Below, piece by piece: positions 745 through 62,858 of a DNA stretch of 64,000 bases. Numbering within the stretch: the stretch's first letter is position 1; every line of letters starts with the position of its first letter. The notes beneath the pieces were generated by a model. The model was not told the DNA's origin. It saw only the letters and a program-made list of their open reading frames with translations, and did not search any database. The position numbers and the translations under genes are program-made. The stretch is taken from assembly GCA_017499595.2 (NCBI GenBank), contig CM039010.1, forward strand, positions 1 through 64,000, read 5' to 3'. The stretch is from Psilocybe cubensis. Its lineage: Eukaryota.

Positions 745-1749
745 AAGAATAGCCACTGAAGAGTCTATAAAGACGAAAGGGCTGGTTGTTGGGATCCCCC
801 AACAGCCCTCAAGTACTCGTCCTCTCCCAAACTCCTGCCGCTTGTGCCTTCCCAACTCATCCGGGAGCCCTTTCGTCACTGATCTTGCCCTTGACTCGGG
901 GACGTTTCATCGACATGTTGGCTGCCTCACGGCAAGCGGGGCCCTTTTTCTTTCACTCGCTCACGCCTTCTATGTTGGGTTACGGAGGTCATACAAACTC
1001 GTTTTAGTCTAGCTGCGGGGATATCCAGCTATGATGACTTTGTAATTCGAGGGCGCGCAGTTCTTCAATGGGTATGGACATCAGGTGAGAGTACACTGGG
1101 GGTTGTCAGGACCAGCTCTGCTGGATACGCTCCTGGCAAGTCGGTTGCAGCCGGCGACACTACCGAATTGCTGGGACGTCCTAAAGCTTGTGGGTACCGC
1201 CGACCGCTGGAAACAGCCTAGGCACCGGTGGCGACCGGGTATGGTAACAATCCCCAAGATTCAGCGAAAGCTGGAATGGATAATCAGCAGCGAATCCGTA
1301 ACGGTCACGCCGACGGAAGCGTTCAACGACTAGGTGGTAGTGGGGTCTTCGGATCTTAAGATATAGTCTTGGGAGTGGGGAAACCCACATCTGGTATCTA
1401 AACCGCGCCTCGCTGCTTACGAGGACGGCCCGAAGTCCAGAACCGCTTAAAACGCGGGTGACCCGGCCTCCCCTTAGTAAAGGGAGTTAACACAAGGATG
1501 GACAAATAGTTCGTCGCCGGAAATGAACCTGTGGCTGTAATGGCTGATGTGGCGCCCCTTGGTAAAGGGCTTAAAGGGTATTAGCCTGCCATGTCCAATG
1601 GCATGAGAGTGTCCCTTGGTAAAGGACTTAATAGGCAATAGCCTGCTCTTTTGTCATGAGCGGTATGTAGTGATCGTTTGCCTGTACGGTAGCGCCCATT
1701 GCTTGCACTGGTCCACGCCCGTAAAAAATCACGAGCCGCTGGCCTTCTT
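745..1749 (+). ncRNA. Type I hammerhead ribozyme split by a group I intron (halves 745-809 and 1739-1749)
   Basis: CTGAAGA-GTCT(ATAA)AGAC-GAAA-GGGCTG...CAGCCC-T at 756-809. C17 and the stem I 3' strand (C-TGGCCTTCTT) resume at 1739. Confidence 0.88.
810..1738 (+). ncRNA. Group I self-splicing intron, IC1-like, 929 nt, no homing endonuclease ORF
   Basis: Core motifs: P GAATTGCTGGGA 1165-1176, Q AATCAGCAGC 1282-1291, R GTTCAACGACTA 1321-1332, S AAGATATAGTC 1358-1368. Pairings: P3 CACTACC/GGTAGTG, P7 GACTA/TAGTC, P5abc with GAAA loop and A-rich bulge TATGGTAACAA, P8 UUCG loop, P9 GAAA loop. 5' exon ends in U809, intron ends in G1738, IGS GGGGTTGT 1099-1106. Precisely absent from other copies. 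Confidence 0.92.
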
Positions 1750-1852
1750 TCTATTTCAAACTCACAGTTTAAACTAGTCGCTCGCACCTCGCTTCGCTCG
1801 GTGCTCGCTCCCCCCCTAAACCCAACGACTTTGCTATCACCCATCAGTTACC

Positions 1853-6236: not shown

Positions 6237-6323
6237 CCCTAAACCCTAAACCCTAAACCCTAAACCCTAAACCCTAAACCCTAAACCCTAAACCCTAAAC
6301 CCTAAACCCTAAACCCTAAACCC
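6237..6323 (+). repeat. Interstitial telomeric tract (~12 x CCCTAAA) between copies
   Basis: Direct reading. Confidence 0.95.
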
Positions 6324-7233
6324 AAACTCCTGCCGCTTGTGCCTTCCCAACTCATCCGGGAGCCCTTTCGTCACTGATCTTGCCCTTGACTCGGGGACGT
6401 TTCATCGACATGTTGGCTGCCTCACGGCAAGCGGGGCCCTTTTTCTTTCACTCGCTCACGCCTTCTATGTTGGGTTACGGAGGTCATACAAACTCGTTTT
6501 AGTCTAGCTGCGGGGTTATCCAGCTATGATGACTTTGTAATTCGAGGGCGCGCAGTTCTTCAATGGGTATGGACATCAGGTGAGAGTACACTGGGGGTTG
6601 TCAGGACCAGCTCTGCTGGATACGCTCCTGGCAAGTCGGTTGCAGCCGGCGACACTACCGAATTGCTGGGACGTCCTAAAGCTTGTGGGTACCGCCGACC
6701 GCTGGAAACAGCCTAGGCACCGGTGGCGACCGGGTATGGTAACAATCCCCAAGATTCAGCGAAAGCTGGAATGGATAATCAGCAGCGAATCCGTAACGGT
6801 CACGCCGACGGAAGCGTTCAACGACTAGGTGGTAGTGGGGTCTTCGGATCTTAAGATATAGTCTTGGGAGTGGGGAAACCCACATCTGGTATCTAAACCG
6901 CGCCTCGCTGCTTACGAGGACGGCCCGAAGTCCAGAACCGCTTAAAACGCGGGTGACCCGGCCTCCCCTTAGTAAAGGGAGTTAACACAAGGATGGACAA
7001 ATAGTTCGTCGCCGGAAATGAACCTGTGGCTGTAATGGCTGATGTGGCGCCCCTTGGTAAAGGGCTTAAAGGGTATTAGCCTGCCATGTCCAATGGCATG
7101 AGAGTGTCCCTTGGTAAAGGACTTAATAGGCAATAGCCTGCTCTTTTGTCATGAGCGGTATGTAGTGATCGTTTGCCTGTACGGTAGCGCCCATTGCTTG
7201 CACTGGTCCACGCCCGTAAAAAATCACGAGCCG
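6321..7233 (+). ncRNA. Group I intron copy lacking its first ~16 nt and 5' splice site
   Basis: Matches 826-1738, with the same P/Q/R/S core and terminal G7233. Confidence 0.88.
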
Positions 7234-21574: not shown

Positions 21575-21902
21575 AACAAAAGTGTTGGATCCACTTTTGA
21601 CAGGTTACCATGTGCCACATCGACCCGTGACACTCTGTTCATCAGAGATCTGTCTAACTTGACAATAAACATTGACAGATTTGTGATAGTCGGTAAGATA
21701 CATGACAGCTGCGCAGCATCACTTCACGCGCTGTCATCGGATGTTCCAGAACATTCCTTCTAAGAATAGCCACTGAAGAGTCTATAAAGACGAAAGGGCT
21801 GGCTGCTGATAACAATCAACAGCCCTCTGGCCTTCTTTCCATTTAACTCACAGTTTAAACAAGTCGCTCGCACCTCGCTTCGCTCGGTGCTCGCTCCCCC
21901 CC
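21575..21902 (+). mobile_element. Short 3' fragment of the PLE (~330 bp) with hammerhead at 21762-21837
   Basis: Follows ~3 telomeric repeats and ends at the canonical 3' end. Confidence 0.88.
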
Positions 21903-22629
21903 TAAACCCTAAACCCTAAACCCTAAGCCCTAACCTAACCCCAACCCTAAGCTAACTAAGTCTAACCTTAGTAGGAAGTAAGGTAGGCGTGTGAACTTCC
22001 GAACGGCATGTGATTGTGAAGGGCCGGATCTAATTTAGTACATGGGAAAAGTTACTTAGTACTTCGGGAAAAGTTCCTTAGTACCGTGGAAACATTTTTG
22101 ATGGACCAGATCATGAACTGTCCAATTAAGATTCACAACAATCAATCAGTCTATTGTTTGATTGTTAGGTAAGGACCCAGGTAAGCTATTTATACTCTAG
22201 ACATGTGAATATTCCCATGTCGCGGTTACTCGGAGCCACGTAACCAGAGTTTTCTATATCCATGTGATTCACATCACAGTCAATAACCCACGATGTCAAA
22301 GAACAAAAGTGTTGGATCCACTTTTGACAGGTTACCATATGCCACATTGACCCGTGACACTCTGTTCATCAGAGATCTGTCTAACTTGACAATAAACATT
22401 GACAGATTTGTGATAGTCGGTAAGATACATGACAGCTGCGCAGCATCACTTCACGCGCTGTCATCGGATGTTCCAGAACATTCCTTCTAAGAATAGCCAC
22501 TGAAGAGTCTATAAAGACGAAAGGGCTGGCTGCTGATAACAATCAACAGCCCTCTGGCTTCTTTCCATTTTAACTCCCAGTTTAAACTAGTCGCTCGCAC
22601 CTCGCTTCGCTCGGTGCTCGCTCCCCCCC
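21903..22629 (+). mobile_element. 3'-UTR-only PLE fragment with hammerhead at 22489-22563
   Basis: Begins in the internal telomeric tract and ends at the canonical 3' end. Confidence 0.88.
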
Positions 22630-23280
22630 TAAACCCTAAACCCTAAACCCTAAACCCTAACCTAACCCCAACCCTAAGCTAACTAAGTCTAACCTTAGTA
22701 GGAAGTAAGGTAGGCGTGTGAACTTCCGAACGGCATGTGATTGTGAAGGGCCGGATCTAATTTAGTACATGGGAAAAGTTACTTAGTACTTCGGGAAAAG
22801 TTCCTTAGTACCGTGGAAACATTTTTGATGGACCGGATCATGAACTGTCCAATTAAGATTCACAACAATCAATCATTCTATTGTTTGATTGTTAGGTAAG
22901 GACCCAGGTAAGCTATTTATACTCTAGACATGTGAATATTCCCATGTCGCGGTTACTCGGAGCCACGTAACCAGAGTAATCTATATCCATGTGATTCACA
23001 TCACAGTCAATAACCCACGATGTCAAAGAACAAAAGTGTTGGATCCACTTTTGACAGGTTACCATGTGCCACATCGACCCGTGACACTCTGTTCATCAGA
23101 GACCTGTCTAACTTGACAATAAACATTGACAGATTTGTGATAGTCGGTAAGATACATGACAGCTGCGCAGCATCACTTCACGCGCTGTCATCGGATGTTC
23201 CAGAACATTCCTTCTAAGAATAGCCACTGAAGAGTCTATAAAGACGAAAGGGCTGGCTGCTGATAACAATCAACAGCCCT

Positions 23281-24209
23281 CAAGTACTCGTCCTCTCCCA
23301 AACTCCTGCCGCTTGTGCCTTCCCAACTCATCCGGGAGCCCTTTCGTCACTGATCTTGCCCTTGACTCGGGGACGTTTCATCGACATGTTGGCTGCCTCA
23401 CGGCAAGCGGGGCCCTTTTTCTTTCACTCGCTCACGCCTTCTATGTTGGGTTACGGAGGTCATACAAACTCGTTTTAGTCTAGCTGCGGGGTTATCCAGC
23501 TATGATGACTTTGTAATTCGAGGGCGCGTAGTTCTTCAATGGGTATGGACATCAGGTGAGAGTACACTGGGGGTTGTCAGGACCAGCTCTGCTGGATACG
23601 CTCCTGGCAAGTCGGTTGCAGCCGGCGACACTACCGAATTGCTGGGACGTCCTAAAGCTTGTGGGTACCGCCGACCGCTGGAAACAGCCTAGGCACCGGT
23701 GGCGACCGGGTATGGTAACAATCCCCAAGATTCAGCGAAAGCTGGAATGGATAATCAGCAGCGAATCCGTAACGGTCACGCCGACGGAAGCGTTCAACGA
23801 CTAGGTGGTAGTGGGGTCTTCGGATCTTAAGATATAGTCTTGGGAGTGGGGAAACCCACATCTGGTATCTAAACCGCGCCTCGCTGCTTACGAGGACGGC
23901 CCGAAGTCCAGAACCGCTTAAAACGCGGGTGACCCGGCCTCCCCTTAGTAAAGGGAGTTAACACAAGGATGGACAAATAGTTCGTCGCCGGAAATGAACC
24001 TGTGGCTGTAATGGCTGATGTGGCGCCCCTTGGTAAAGGGCTTAAAGGGTATTAGCCTGCCATGTCCAATGGCATGAGAGTGTCCCTTGGTAAAGGACTT
24101 AATAGGCAATAGCCTGCTCTTTTGTCATGAGCGGTATGTAGTGATCGTTTGCCTGTACGGTAGCGCCCATTGCTTGCACTGGTCCACGCCCGTAAAAAAT
24201 CACGAGCCG
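23281..24209 (+). ncRNA. Group I intron (full, 929 nt) splitting the hammerhead
   Basis: CAGCCCT|CAAGTAC...GAGCCG|CTGGCC. Near-identical to 810-1738. Confidence 0.92.
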
Positions 24210-31662: not shown

Positions 31663-32591
31663 CAAGTACTCGTCCTCTCCCAAACTCCTGCCGCTTGTGC
31701 CTTCCCAACTCATCCGGGAGCCCTTTCGTCACTGATCTTGCCCTTGACTCGGGGACGTTTCATCGACATGTTGGCTGCCTCACGGCAAGCGGGGCCCTTT
31801 TTCTTTCACTCGCTCACGCCTTCTATGTTGGGTTACGGAGGTCATACAAACTCGTTTTAGTCTAGCTGCGGGGTTATCCAGCTATGATGACTTTGTAATT
31901 CGAGGGCGCGCAGTTCTTCAATGGGTATGGACATCAGGTGAGAGTACACTGGGGGTTGTCAGGACCAGCTCTGCTGGATACGCTCCTGGCAAGTCGGTTG
32001 CAGCCGGCGACACTACCGAATTGCTGGGACGTCCTAAAGCTTGTGGGTACCGCCGACCGCTGGAAACAGCCTAGGCACCGGTGGCGACCGGGTATGGTAA
32101 CAATCCCCAAGATTCAGCGAAAGCTGGAATGGATAATCAGCAGCGAATCCGTAACGGTCACGCCGACGGAAGCGTTCAACGACTAGGTGGTAGTGGGGTC
32201 TTCGGATCTTAAGATATAGTCTTGGGAGTGGGGAAACCCACATCTGGTATCTAAACCGCGCCTCGCTGCTTACGAGGACGGCCCGAAGTCCAGAACCGCT
32301 TAAAACGCGGGTGACCCGGCCTCCCCTTAGTAAAGGGAGTTAACACAAGGATGGACAAATAGTTCGTCGCCGGAAATGAACCTGTGGCTGTAATGGCTGA
32401 TGTGGCGCCCCTTGGTAAAGGGCTTAAAGGGTATTAGCCTGCCATGTCCAATGGCATGAGAGTGTCCCTTGGTAAAGGACTTAATAGGCAATAGCCTGCT
32501 CTTTTGTCATGAGCGGTATGTAGTGATCGTTTGCCTGTACGGTAGCGCCCATTGCTTGCACTGGTCCACGCCCGTAAAAAATCACGAGCCG
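31663..32591 (+). ncRNA. Group I intron (full, 929 nt) splitting the hammerhead
   Basis: Same junctions and core as 810-1738. Confidence 0.92.
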
Positions 32592-58847: not shown

Positions 58848-61800
58848 ATGACATGGGTCAGAGCGATTTCAAGATCGATAAGAGGGCGATCAGCTCTACC
58901 ATATCTCCTACTACAACTGCCAAGCAAAAATGTCAGTAAATCACCGTTTTGTTCATTGCGCTTTAGAAACAAAATCTTACTACATGTTATGCAGCTTTCA
59001 CCAATTCTTCGAGGATCTAACGTTATGAAGTCAAACGAAGAGCAACTGCCCAGCGTAGATAAGAAAACAACAGGAATTGATAACACTAGACGGCCTGCTA
59101 CATCTGATAGTGTCCCTTCGGGAGGCGACAGCAAAACAGGCCGTCGTGATAATTCCAAGATACATGAAATGCTCGATAGCTGTTCGCCCGAACACCCTGA
59201 TCGACAGGCTGCAGTCAAATACATCGTCGAATATATGCTTGATCACTATTCAGAAATTATAGGGAAGGCGATGGAGGAGGTACCGGTTTCCCAGGACGCA
59301 AACAAACTAAAAAACCCTATTCCGCCTGATCATATTGCCAACAAATTGTTAGATAAACTCACCAACGACGTTGAAGTAGCTATTGCGTATTACCGCGAGC
59401 TTCTCAATAGAGCTCCACCAGACCATTATTATCGCCCACAATGTCTGGAGGGACTTTGCAGTGCACTAGTATCCCGCTTTTCAGAGACTAGAGAAATTGA
59501 AGACCTCGACGAAGCAATTTTACGACAACGTGAAGAACTAGCAATCCATATTTCTCGCGGGTCAAATCGTTCAGTCAGTCTAAACAACCTCGCCAATATG
59601 TTTTCTATGCGATTTGAAGAAACAGACGAAATGACAGACCTTGATGATGCAATCAAATATCATCGCGAATCTCTTTCTCTGCGTTCTCCTGATCATCCTC
59701 ATCGTTACGTCGCTTTGCTAGGGCTGGGTGATGTACTCAAAGAACGCTTCGACCTAGGAGGAACTATTGACGATTTGGAAGAGGCAATACCGGCATACCG
59801 CGAGCTGTTAAGCATCTGGACCACTGGTCACCCCAACAACTCAATGGCTCTGAACCGCCTTGCTAGTTGTCTTATAGTTCGATATGAGCAACTTGGAGAT
59901 ACGGAAGATCTGAAGCAATCTATCGCCTACTTATGCGAATCGCTCAGAGTATGTCCCGGTTACCATCCAGAGCATTCAAGATGCTTTGACGCCCTTGCCA
60001 CTGTGATCTCGGTTCGGTATAATAGGTTTGGAGAAATAAAAGATTTGGAAGAAGCAATGGTGCTCCATAAAAATGCCCTTGATTTGTGCCCTCCAGGACA
60101 CCCTCAACGATCAATGACCTTGATCAATTTTGCTATTTCTCACAAAAAACGATATGAACGACTTGGAAATATGGAAGACTTGGAGCAGGCAATTTCTTAT
60201 AATCGTGAAGCGCTAACATTGGTCCCCTTTCCCACCAATGAACGTGGAAAGCTCTTGAACAATCTCGCAAATGCTCTCCAAGCTCGATATATTACCCTAG
60301 GATCCACCAAAGATCTGGAAGAGTCCATAATTTACTTTTATGATGCCCTCAATATCTATCCAGAAGGTGACCCAGAGCGTGCTTTGCCCCTGAATAACAT
60401 TGCCAATGCCATTCATATCCGATACGAGCTCTTTGGTGAACCACAGGACTTGGAAAAGTTAATCATGTACCGTCGCGAAGCTCTCTCGCTCTACCCTGAG
60501 CATCACATTGAGCGTGCAGGGGCTTTAAACCACCTTGCAAGTGCCATATTCCTTCGCTTTGCCTCCTTTGGCTCAATGGAAGACCTAGAAGAGTGCATTT
60601 CCATCAATCGAACATCAATGGAGCTATCTCCAGCCGACGATGATCGATGTGCCGCCTTGTGTAACATCGTAAATGCCCTTCAAACACGTTACGAGCATTT
60701 AGGTACCGCTGAAGACTTGGATGAAGCAATCAGCTACATTGAAGATGGCCTTCGCTTCGAGTCCCGAGGAAACCTCCATCTTTCAGTGTTATTGAACACG
60801 TTTGGAATGGTTCTTCAACACCGCTATCGTCTGGTCCATAACGTTGACGATTTGGAGTATGCAATCATCTTGTATCGCAAAGTTCTTGAGCTTCAACCGC
60901 CCGGTCATCCCTTGCGATTCACATCGTTGAACAATATTTCCATATCGCTTCAAGGCCGATATATACGTTTCGGTTCTCCCGAAGACCTCGAGGAAGCAAT
61001 CCAATTCCTGCGCGAATCCATGGCGTGTCTGACAAAAAGTCACACTCGATACCCGTTTATTATTAACAACCTTTCCGAAGCCCTTGCAAGGTCATCGGAG
61101 AAGGAGAATATGGACGAAGCGGTCGACCTTGGCCGTCAAGCTCTCCTCATGCTGTCGGGTGGTCATCCTGGTCGGTCGAGGGCTCTGTTAAACCTTGGGG
61201 ATACACTTTTATCACGCTTCAATCTATTGAACAATATGGAGGATCATGATGAGGCCTTCACATTGTATGAACAAGCTGCAGGTACTGTTACCTCCCCTTC
61301 GTTTCATTGTCTCTTCGCCGCCGTCCGCTGGATGTATCGGGGGAACAAGTATCAACACGAATCCGTAATTAGGGCATGCAAAGCGTCGTTGCAGCTGCTT
61401 CATCGCTCTTCCATGTTCCAAGGAAACGTTGAGTCGCAGCATAGGTTCATGATTGTAGCCAATACCAGACTTCCACTGTCAATGATATCCGACGCAGCGT
61501 CTTTTGCCATCAACACAGGAAATCTAGAGCTAGCGGTCGAGTTCCTTGAGCAAGGCAGAGCAATATTGTGGTCCAGGGTAAATAACTACAAGACCACACT
61601 CGAGGAGCTCCGGAACATTGCAGGCGGAATTGAACTGGCCGATCGTCTGGAGTCAATTAATTCACAGCTTAATGGGATTGTTTTCGAATCAAAAGGTGGA
61701 ATGATAGGAAAACAAGACATATCTTTCTGGAATATCTTTGACGCGCAGATGAAAAACCATCGCTTACTTTCAGAGCAAAGGGAAGAAATAATAGGAAAAA

Positions 61801-62858
61801 TTCGCAAGCTTCGCGGATTTGAAAACTTTCTACAGGCTCTGCCGTTTAAAACTCTTCAGCTAGCTGCTGCTGAAGGGCCTGTCATAGTCATCAATGTGGG
61901 CGCCTTTCGTTGTGACGCAATCATCGTGCTTAACGATGGCTCTCCTATTCTCATTCCCCTGCCGTTACTGGATGAAATTGAAGAACTTACTGAACAGCTT
62001 AATCGACACCGCTTTTCTCGCCAGATCGTTTCAGTCTTGCGTAATTTGTGGGACTTGATCGTATGCCCCGTAGTCGAACGGTTGACCAAGCTCGGAGTCC
62101 CACACAAGTCACGAATCTGGTGGTGTCCTACATCTGACCTGTGTACATTACCCATTCACGCGGCAGGTCCGTACAGGCCTGGGGAAAAGAATTTACCGGA
62201 CATTTACCTATCCTCCTACACCTCCACATTAACATCACTGATCCGAGCAAGGGAAAACATAGCAAAATCGTACGAGGCTCCAAAGTTGCTGGTCGTCGGT
62301 CAGCTTGGGCCAGACCTCCAAAGCGTCCAGGACGAGGTAGACGCGATAAAGGAGTACAAAAATGACACCAGCGTATTAATGGGCCCAGAGGCAACTCCCG
62401 ACACCGTTCTCGATGGTCTAAAAGCGCATTCATGGGCCCATCTTGCTTGCCACGGCCGTCTAGCCAAAGATAACCAACTATTCCGCACGCATTTCGAGCT
62501 TTCTGGAGGAGAACTGACACTCCTCGACTTGATCCGTGCCAAGATCCCCAATGCCGAGTTCGCATTTCTATCCGCATGCCACAGCGCATCAGGAGGTGTA
62601 CTCACTCCCGACGAGAGCATCCATTTATCGGCGGCAATGCAGTTCTGTGGATTCCGCAGTGTGGTTGGGACGCTGTGGGAGATGGCCGATGAGGATGGAC
62701 CGACCATTGCGAAGGAGTTTTACAACTATATGTTCCGCAATGAGACAGAGATCAACTTCAGAGACTCGGCAGCGGCGCTGTATTCTGCCATTAGGGTAAT
62801 GAGAAAGAACAAGGCGTCCCCGGAACGCTGGGTTATGTTTGTACATACCGGTGCTTGA
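58848..62858 (+). CDS. TPR-repeat protein with C-terminal CHAT (caspase-like) protease domain; true start probably in upstream exons
   Basis: More than 10 repeats of type 'LNNLA..L..RY...G..EDLEEAI...REAL.L.P.GHP'. CHAT motifs IWWCPT..L..LPIHAAG, HLACHG (His at 62451), FLSACHS (Cys at 62577), VVGTLW, W..FVHTGA. Confidence 0.9.
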   Translation: MTWVRAISRSIRGRSALPYLLLQLPSKNVSKSPFCSLRFRNKILLHVMQLSPILRGSNVMKSNEEQLPSVDKKTTGIDNTRRPATSDSVPSGGDSKTGRRDNSKIHEMLDSCSPEHPDRQAAVKYIVEYMLDHYSEIIGKAMEEVPVSQDANKLKNPIPPDHIANKLLDKLTNDVEVAIAYYRELLNRAPPDHYYRPQCLEGLCSALVSRFSETREIEDLDEAILRQREELAIHISRGSNRSVSLNNLANMFSMRFEETDEMTDLDDAIKYHRESLSLRSPDHPHRYVALLGLGDVLKERFDLGGTIDDLEEAIPAYRELLSIWTTGHPNNSMALNRLASCLIVRYEQLGDTEDLKQSIAYLCESLRVCPGYHPEHSRCFDALATVISVRYNRFGEIKDLEEAMVLHKNALDLCPPGHPQRSMTLINFAISHKKRYERLGNMEDLEQAISYNREALTLVPFPTNERGKLLNNLANALQARYITLGSTKDLEESIIYFYDALNIYPEGDPERALPLNNIANAIHIRYELFGEPQDLEKLIMYRREALSLYPEHHIERAGALNHLASAIFLRFASFGSMEDLEECISINRTSMELSPADDDRCAALCNIVNALQTRYEHLGTAEDLDEAISYIEDGLRFESRGNLHLSVLLNTFGMVLQHRYRLVHNVDDLEYAIILYRKVLELQPPGHPLRFTSLNNISISLQGRYIRFGSPEDLEEAIQFLRESMACLTKSHTRYPFIINNLSEALARSSEKENMDEAVDLGRQALLMLSGGHPGRSRALLNLGDTLLSRFNLLNNMEDHDEAFTLYEQAAGTVTSPSFHCLFAAVRWMYRGNKYQHESVIRACKASLQLLHRSSMFQGNVESQHRFMIVANTRLPLSMISDAASFAINTGNLELAVEFLEQGRAILWSRVNNYKTTLEELRNIAGGIELADRLESINSQLNGIVFESKGGMIGKQDISFWNIFDAQMKNHRLLSEQREEIIGKIRKLRGFENFLQALPFKTLQLAAAEGPVIVINVGAFRCDAIIVLNDGSPILIPLPLLDEIEELTEQLNRHRFSRQIVSVLRNLWDLIVCPVVERLTKLGVPHKSRIWWCPTSDLCTLPIHAAGPYRPGEKNLPDIYLSSYTSTLTSLIRARENIAKSYEAPKLLVVGQLGPDLQSVQDEVDAIKEYKNDTSVLMGPEATPDTVLDGLKAHSWAHLACHGRLAKDNQLFRTHFELSGGELTLLDLIRAKIPNAEFAFLSACHSASGGVLTPDESIHLSAAMQFCGFRSVVGTLWEMADEDGPTIAKEFYNYMFRNETEINFRDSAAALYSAIRVMRKNKASPERWVMFVHTGA

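Follow-up and report, generated by a model that had tools for sequence, protein, structure and literature searches.

A predicted group I intron that splits a hammerhead ribozyme in a telomeric retroelement of Psilocybe cubensis contains a 12-nt complement to the hammerhead core

Background

According to PMC8557442, endonuclease-less Penelope-like retroelements such as Athena and Coprina occur in telomeric arrays, together with telomere-like repeats and an adjacent hammerhead ribozyme, and PMC4209133 attributes to fungal elements of this kind type I hammerheads, among them variants in which helix III is large. Two reviews (PMC3679873, PMC8395846) describe nuclear group I introns as confined to rDNA. 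Here we analyze the first 64,000 nt of contig CM039010.1 of Psilocybe cubensis (GenBank assembly GCA_017499595.2, forward strand), hereafter referred to as the window, in which a predicted group I intron interrupts a hammerhead of an apparently similar element. The element shares with the carriers of the Athena and Coprina hammerheads the telomeric head-to-tail arrays, the telomere-like repeats and a type I hammerhead whose helix III is large, but it differs in the possession of a group I intron, of which there is no mention for those elements in the accessible parts of PMC8557442 and PMC4209133. Judging from titles and abstract openings, we found no report that a Penelope-like element or a hammerhead harbours a group I intron. 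To judge by its sequence context, the intron resides in a nuclear, non-rDNA setting, namely in the untranslated region of a telomeric retroelement.

The P1 loop of this intron contains a 12-nt segment that is complementary to the core of the hammerhead. We tentatively favour, with somewhat less than even confidence, the view that this segment is an intron-borne lock that holds the hammerhead in an off state and whose effect on splicing is neutral or slowing.

A 12-nt complement to the hammerhead core

Nucleotides 866–877 (AGCCCTTTCGTC) are confirmed by the sequence to be the exact reverse complement of 772–783 (GACGAAAGGGCT), and the pairing cannot be extended at either end (A771/A878, G784/G865). 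The extent of the target was correctly described in the initial annotation of this DNA: it spans the 3' strand of stem II (G772–C774), the GAAA (G775–A778) and the 5' strand of stem III (G779–U783). The placement of the complementary segment inside the P1 loop also holds, with the 5' exon strand 802–809 pairing with G1099–U1106 upstream of the Rfam core (1094–1390). The target 12-mer occurs 16 times in the window, once per hammerhead copy, and the antisense 12-mer four times (at 866, 6361, 23337 and 31719), once per intron copy and nowhere else.

When the intron (taken as 807–1738, i.e. from 3 nt before its final boundary) was shuffled with preservation of dinucleotides, a perfect complement of at least 12 nt to the hammerhead (735–807) arose in 7 of 3000 shuffles (p ~0.002). 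The pair is also the only perfect inverted repeat of at least 12 nt with separate arms within 150 nt in the 22.3 kb of non-repeated window sequence, where one 11-nt pair was found besides. The existence of one 12-nt inverted repeat is unremarkable; its position on the hammerhead core is unusual. We conclude that the antisense match is real and unlikely to be due to chance at this position. A second, weaker complement to nearly the same target was detected closer to the 3' splice site (Table 1); according to our own arithmetic it has p ~0.04 on its own, and a contig of the public DNA run X10 varies at two of its positions (1645 G>A and 1648 C>T).

The interrupted hammerhead and the intron

All 16 hammerhead copies in the window read ..GCCA CUGAAGA G-UCU-AUAA-AGA-C GAAA (stem III) U C^UGGCC.., with cleavage predicted after C17 (C1739), the C that follows U809. 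The CUGANGA...GAAA core, the A15.1–U16.1 pair (A778–U809), C17, and three helices with stem I open assign the motif to type I. A15.1 and U16.1 are present in all 20 rows with stem I located, of 27 motif matches examined; the rows of loci L025 and L026, in which our script had misplaced stem I, were left out of this count. The Rfam gathering score was missed, with RAGATH-1-hammerhead at 23.0 bits against 56.3 (intron-less copy) and Hammerhead_3 at 19.5 against 48.5. A metagenome scan with a reverse transcriptase alignment identified 29 related loci (L001–L029), 18 of which possess the same hammerhead layout; across the loci, inspection by eye reveals the stem II variants GUCU/AGAC, GCCU/AGGC, GCCUU/AAGGC, GCCC/GGGC and GGCC/GGCC. 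A candidate second hammerhead on the minus strand of the intron, near 866–877, was rejected, as no CUGANGA with a fitting stem II was seen there by eye.

Three of the 16 copies are interrupted by insertions of 929 nt (810–1738, 23281–24209 and 31663–32591), while the remaining 13 have the uninterrupted site, CAGCCCUC directly followed by UGGCC. A contig from the DNA run X8 joins 809 to 1739, skipping the 929 nt; both this joint and the empty sites are DNA copies and not spliced RNA. An ambiguity of 1 nt in the boundaries was resolved such that the 5' exon ends with U809 and the intron with G1738, and the previously proposed fit of the intron to its site is borne out. P1 comprises 8+2 bp, i.e. 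802–809 with 1099–1106, including the U809–G1099 wobble, plus U1097–A811 and G1098–C810. Rfam RF00028 matches 1094–1390 with 70.9 bits against a gathering score of 50, and the other three copies with 73 bits. A 5' exon that ends in U paired to a guide G, a terminal intron G and the RF00028 score identify the insertion as a group I intron, which is predicted to be self-splicing. Its 5' splice site lies 1 nt upstream of the hammerhead cleavage site, and the intron splits the hammerhead.

Predicted pairing and a proposed off state of the hammerhead

All folding results reported here are nearest-neighbour predictions (RNAfold/ViennaRNA). In agreement with the pairing initially proposed, 11 of the 12 antisense pairs form with probabilities of 0.99–1.0 in the constructs 700–1110 and 735–900; the minimum free energy (MFE) of 735–900 has a z of -2.72, with 1 of 200 shuffles as stable. 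The duplex energy of the antisense helix is -20.8 kcal/mol vs -14.6 kcal/mol for P1. Relative to the free ensemble, forcing hammerhead stems II and III costs 5.3–9.1 kcal/mol (3 of 3 constructs), compared to 0.3–1.5 kcal/mol for forcing the antisense helix. The suggestion that the antisense would unfold the upstream half-hammerhead therefore survives in part: the predicted helix is incompatible with stem II, the core and the base of stem III, but the P1 strand is not freed in these models (see below).

In the active register of stem III, A778–G784 pairs with C803–U809, GGYU (784–787) is bulged, and the upper stem follows, whose pairs covary, by eye, among the four stem III variants in the window. 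A slipped register is also available (Table 1). The two registers lie within 0–2 kcal/mol in the Psilocybe variants as well as in L001, L003, L004, L007, L009 and L017–L019, and a bistable stem III (either 6 bp with a 4-nt 5' bulge, GGYU or GGCC, and an upper stem, or slipped) is found in the Psilocybe variants V1–V4 and in L007, L009 and L017–L019. Sequestration of 772–783 is predicted to select the slipped register.

The off-state lock that we tentatively favour would operate in unspliced retroelement RNA, where 866–877 would pair with 772–783 and hold the upstream half of the split hammerhead inactive, with stem II and the GAAA core sequestered and stem III pushed into the slipped register. 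The P1 strand would not be liberated; in the models the antisense helix is neutral to mildly inhibitory for P1 formation. We infer that the helix forms in vivo and that it has been selected for. It may benefit the intron by keeping the exon from folding as a hammerhead, by tethering the 5' exon, or by slowing down splicing, so that the intron-bearing RNA would get reverse transcribed.

The hammerhead lineage itself seems to have an intrinsic off state. In the intron-less Psilocybe copies, the MFE structure pairs GAAAGGGCU with GGCC..CUUUC from the 3' exon. At +37, the loci L007, L009 and L010 contain in their native 3' flank CTTTCGTC opposite GACGAAAG (17, 9 and 10 of 500 shuffles, respectively), and the flank of L004 and L005 contains, at +40, TTTCGCC opposite GGCGAAA (60 and 44 of 500 shuffles). 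These complements of 7–8 nt are located at ~150–175 in L007, ~4685–4710 in L009, ~4590–4615 in L010, and just 3' of the hammerheads in L004 and L005. Where stem II differs by A/G between these loci, the flank shows the corresponding U/C change (GUC/GAC vs GCC/GGC), and it is this covariation that suggests the off state. The antisense segment resembles a strengthened copy of the pairing partner that the intron displaced: the insertion would have moved the native partner 929 nt away, and the antisense helix would provide an intron-borne, stronger version of the lineage's own off pairing downstream of the cleavage site.

Relatives of the element and the possibility of chance

The target 12-mer is also present in the hammerheads of L001, L007, L009 and L010, elements that are only 51–64% identical in protein. 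None of the 20 loci L001–L020 has a group I intron at the gathering score. Among L021–L029, one is found in L026 (57.0 bits), and nucleotides 1–294 of L023 start inside another one, at a contig end (39.6 bits). The L026 intron (452–1590, 1139 nt) was placed with the aid of the empty site in L025 (5235–5310); its 5' exon ends in U and the intron in G. Within the region 395–1620 of L026, it is situated 6 nt downstream of the cleavage site of its hammerhead, inside stem I, in an element very distant from that of Psilocybe (28–32% protein identity). The core and the 3' domain of the two introns are homologous (0 of 300 shuffles each), while their P1 loops (L1) are unalignable, with 251 of 300 shuffles scoring at least as well. 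In L026 the helix that competes with P1 would be stem I and not stem III. To judge from these two placements, this intron family seems to have inserted near hammerheads more than once, and not always at the same position. The conserved 32-nt hairpin motif of the family had no matches in assembled genome contigs or in viral contigs.

A motif of ~39 nt with two hairpins (CCCTTGGTAAAGGRCTTAA..TAGCCT) occurs twice per intron, at 1549–1587 and 1609–1647 of the window and at 731–766 and 1519–1557 of L026. It is 86–94% alike between the Psilocybe and L026 introns despite the unalignable P1 loops; a third, shorter look-alike is present at ~1466–1482.

Several observations weigh against an off-state lock. 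In unspliced RNA the hammerhead already lacks stem I beside the cleavage site, and so there is no obvious necessity for an extra lock. The helix is a nearest-neighbour prediction throughout. The L026 intron has no complement of at least 8 nt to its hammerhead, and its four 7-nt matches all lie outside L1. Conservation, proposed initially as a check, thus fails in the single homologous intron, which is only a weak refutation, because that intron occupies a different site. The native anti-core complement was found in only 5 of 22 hammerhead rows, each time with modest significance (9–60 of 500 shuffles), and by our own arithmetic ~0.2 such 12-mers would be expected by chance in ~22 kb. Both segments are identical in all copies, hence there is no covariation signal either way, and the initially suggested co-adaptation of the intron to its site would be conjectural. 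Finally, in the four public DNA runs of other organism labels that we compared, the antisense is spanned by one outside contig only (run X11, 841–1042, with one T>C, unplaced); the other three lack cover at 823–863, their contigs starting at 881, 893 and 905.

A match that arose by chance, has no function and is carried along in a lineage-specific insertion in the loop of the intron is the most serious alternative, and we regard it as unlikely but still a substantial possibility. A single perfect 12-nt inverted repeat with its arms within 150 nt is nothing unusual in ~20–100 kb, the complement is not conserved in L026, where the L1 region is the very part that cannot be aligned, and the copies of the Psilocybe type show at most 2 differences in 929 nt, so that the persistence of the match says nothing about selection. 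Chance would, however, have to account for a match that lands on the 73-nt hammerhead, for which the shuffles give the low p-value quoted above, and covers exactly its conserved core, for the second partial complement to the same target at 1645–1655, and for the resemblance of the segment to the native off-pairing partner in the relatives.

Spread of the intron

The four intron copies are near-identical (at most 2 differences in 929 positions), while the open reading frames (ORFs) of their hosts belong to subfamilies that differ at 147–156 of 3534 columns (~4%). Moreover, unit u2, which has the intron, is 1 nt away from the intron-less units u3 and u4. It follows that intron gain or loss has been recent and independent of host divergence, be it by splicing and reverse transcription, by reverse splicing, or by recombination. 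One of the four copies is cut at its 5' end and joined to telomere repeats (Table 1); it keeps the antisense (6361–6372) and has no hammerhead of its own upstream. The junction with the repeats (6237–6330) suggests either that unspliced element RNA was reverse transcribed onto the chromosome end or that a break in the intron was healed by telomerase.

The same distribution could be explained if the 12-mer served in trans. In this scenario the excised intron would use the 12-mer and the guide sequence as a two-part guide to bind element RNAs that carry the hammerhead, prevent these RNAs from cleaving themselves and insert into them by reverse splicing, and the reverse transcriptase of the element would fix the insertion. 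The presence of the same intron in both subfamilies and the pair of u2 with u3 and u4 agree with such a route, as do the preservation of the target 12-mer in elements as diverged as L001, L007, L009 and L010 and the homologous intron that adjoins a hammerhead cleavage site in the very distant L026. In addition, according to PMC6155759, engineered trans-splicing group I ribozymes become more efficient when antisense duplexes are added. Recombination between tandem units at the DNA level explains the distribution equally well, however, the engineered antisense targets sequence 3' of the splice site while the target here is 5' of it with a crossing topology, and L026 lacks such a guide. We consider use of the 12-mer in trans decidedly improbable. 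The wider proposal of a nuclear group I intron outside rDNA that is specialised on hammerheads, binds by a two-part guide, stops its target from cutting itself and reverse-splices, while the host reverse transcriptase writes the product onto the chromosome end, strikes us as doubtful.

Effect on P1

The initial annotation assigned to the antisense the role of a switch that unfolds the half-hammerhead, frees CAGCCCU (803–809) for the guide sequence and thereby promotes splicing. Such a switch has a certain appeal, as the predicted helix removes the A778–U809 and G779–C808 pairs of the active register and the antisense is transcribed ~220 nt ahead of the guide sequence, and hence could act first; competition between a 5' exon hairpin and P1 is also known as a difficulty in the Tetrahymena pre-rRNA. 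The models point in the opposite direction. The cost of opening 802–811 rises when 772–783 is sequestered in all four cases (7.5 to 9.5, 5.7 to 8.0, 9.4 to 10.7 and 6.1 to 8.0 kcal/mol from free to blocked target), because the slipped hairpin 784–807 forms and the antisense helix stacks on it. Nor is the competition between stem III and P1 resolved by the antisense, since the same opening costs 9.1–10.0 kcal/mol with the antisense available vs 6.4–8.7 kcal/mol with the antisense blocked (6 of 6 models). An anti-attenuator would make the P1 strand of the 5' exon easier to expose, and in none of these 4 and 6 model cases does the pairing do so, while the splice-site nucleotides 808–811 are open with or without the antisense (0.17–0.29 kcal/mol).

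The antisense helix and P1 moreover cross (772 < 802 < 877 < 1106), hence they can coexist only as a pseudoknot, and nested folding treats them as mutually exclusive. The MFE structure switches between the two with the length of the construct, and the P1-formed state with the antisense duplex energy added comes to 4.9–9.3 kcal/mol before any pseudoknot penalty. Coexistence of the two helices is possible according to these models, while a benefit of the antisense for P1 is contradicted by them, and we find it hard to credit the 12-mer with promotion of splicing.

It is least likely of all that the 5' part of the intron loop derives from the native downstream flank of the hammerhead, captured when the intron moved, with the complementarity inherited: CUUUCGUC and CGUCCUCU do occur both in the native 3' flank of L007, L009 and L010 and at intron nt 9–16 and 61–68, and local alignments of L1 with the flanks are marginal (3 of 300 shuffles for L001, 7 of 300 for L010), but with 10 flanks tested the latter values fail correction, L1 has no significant similarity to Psilocybe's own 3' exon (420 of 500 shuffles, on which ground L1 as a duplicate of this exon was rejected), and no group I mobility pathway is known to duplicate flanking exon sequence.

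The telomeric host element

The window opens with 21 copies of the 7-mer CCCTAAA (1–210), the telomere unit, from which we take the window start to be a chromosome end. One element extends from there in a head-to-tail array to ~47 kb, with an ORF of 1176–1177 aa that contains the YIDD reverse transcriptase motif (P0001). Residues 560–1000 of the ORF are 98–99% identical to Psilocybe cubensis database proteins with precomputed PF00078 matches, and further database proteins (P0005–P0046) share 63–75% identity; the Pfam scan of the window ORF itself returned no family for the reverse transcriptase ORF at E 0.01. A reverse transcriptase ORF without endonuclease, the telomeric head-to-tail array, the telomere-like repeats and the hammerhead mark the host as a putative telomere-attached, endonuclease-less Penelope-like retroelement, presumably of the Coprina type to judge by these features.

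An internal motif, CCCCCCCTAAACCC, is found ~100 nt downstream of the hammerhead, and runs of 3–12 CCCTAAA units separate some element copies there; it looks like a priming site on the G-rich overhang. Three short units of ~727 nt each (21789–23243) are reduced to the telomere-like block, hammerhead and priming motif, and are probably strongly 5'-cut or internally primed copies. Beyond the array, 58848–62858 encodes a 1336-aa ORF with TPR repeats and a C-terminal CHAT domain.

Table 1. Features of the interrupted hammerhead, the intron and the complementary segments in the window
Feature	Position	Strand	Basis or remark
Upstream part of type I hammerhead (predicted)	745–809	+	Core and helices read from sequence; topology from RAGATH-1-hammerhead alignment of an intron-less copy
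Stem I, 3' strand	745–755	+	Within the upstream hammerhead part
Hammerhead core CUGAAGA	756–762	+	C756–A762; read from sequence
Stem II, loop AUAA	763–766/771–774	+	Read from sequence
Antisense target GACGAAAGGGCU	772–783	+	Exact complement of 866–877
GAAA	775–778	+	G775–A778; read from sequence
Stem III	778–809	+	Includes the A778–U809 pair
Slipped-register hairpin (predicted)	784–807	+	784–793 with 798–807; MFE structures; keeps P1 strand paired when 772–783 is sequestered
Group I intron (predicted), 929 nt	810–1738	+	C810 is the first nt after 5' exon U809; ends with G1738; filled vs empty sites
Antisense segment AGCCCUUUCGUC	866–877	+	In the P1 loop of ~287 nt
Internal guide sequence	1097–1106	+	G1099–U1106 pair with 802–809; directly 5' of the Rfam-aligned core
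Second, weaker complement to 772–782	1645–1655	+	11 pairs including 2 G-U; 83 nt before the 3' splice site
Start of 3' exon	1739–1751	+	Position 17 of the hammerhead is C1739; the 5' strand of stem I begins with U1740; from empty-site copies
5'-cut intron copy	6321–7233	+	Starts at about intron nt 17; joined to 12 telomere repeats
Target/antisense pair, intron copy 3	23243–23254/23337–23348	+	Word search
Target/antisense pair, intron copy 4	31625–31636/31719–31730	+	Word search

Comparison with known systems

If the antisense helix is functional, it would represent a natural case of one ribozyme with a dedicated antisense against the catalytic core of the ribozyme that it interrupts, and a ready-made system for the study of conflict or cooperation between self-cleaving and self-splicing RNAs. 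If only chance is involved, the 12-mer is a detail of an otherwise notable intron. The setting, in which an RNA that is nuclear, non-rDNA and reverse transcribed contains a group I intron, outweighs the 12-mer in any case, and the near-identical intron in diverged hosts, together with the L026 homolog beside a hammerhead, makes spread by reverse splicing directly testable. Should the intron prove to use the 12-mer as a guide in trans, it would be a parasitic ribozyme whose host, a retroelement, itself bears a ribozyme, and it would exemplify the mobility by reverse splicing that has long been postulated, the host element contributing the reverse transcriptase step.

In the Tetrahymena pre-rRNA, a 5' exon hairpin reportedly competes with P1, as Cao and Woodson are said to have described in 1998. 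The likeness is that a stable 5' exon hairpin, here stem III, sequesters the P1 strand, and that a third sequence engages the hairpin's other strand. Here, however, the third sequence would lie inside the intron and not in the exon, and the hairpin is not destabilised in the models because the slipped register takes over.

Hammerhead self-cleavage in small RNA pathogens is regulated by conformation, according to PMC4209133. As in the inactive folds of natural hammerheads, the core and a stem strand would be captured here by a competing segment, and the relatives of this element appear to carry such a segment natively downstream. The difference is that in Psilocybe the competing segment belongs to a group I intron, which interrupts the ribozyme at a distance of 1 nt from the cleavage site.

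The engineered trans-splicing ribozymes described in PMC6155759 offer a third parallel, namely an extra duplex that the ribozyme forms with its substrate 5' of the guide and that is separated from P1 by a loop. In these designs the antisense binds sequence 3' of the splice site, as an in-line extension of P1. The Psilocybe segment does not conform to such an extended guide: the antisense (866–877) is 5' of the guide (1099–1106), but the target (772–783) is 5' of the splice site (809). Compared to the engineered antisense, the predicted pairing is thus with sequence 19 nt 5' of the P1 strand, in a crossing topology, and it is natural and in cis.

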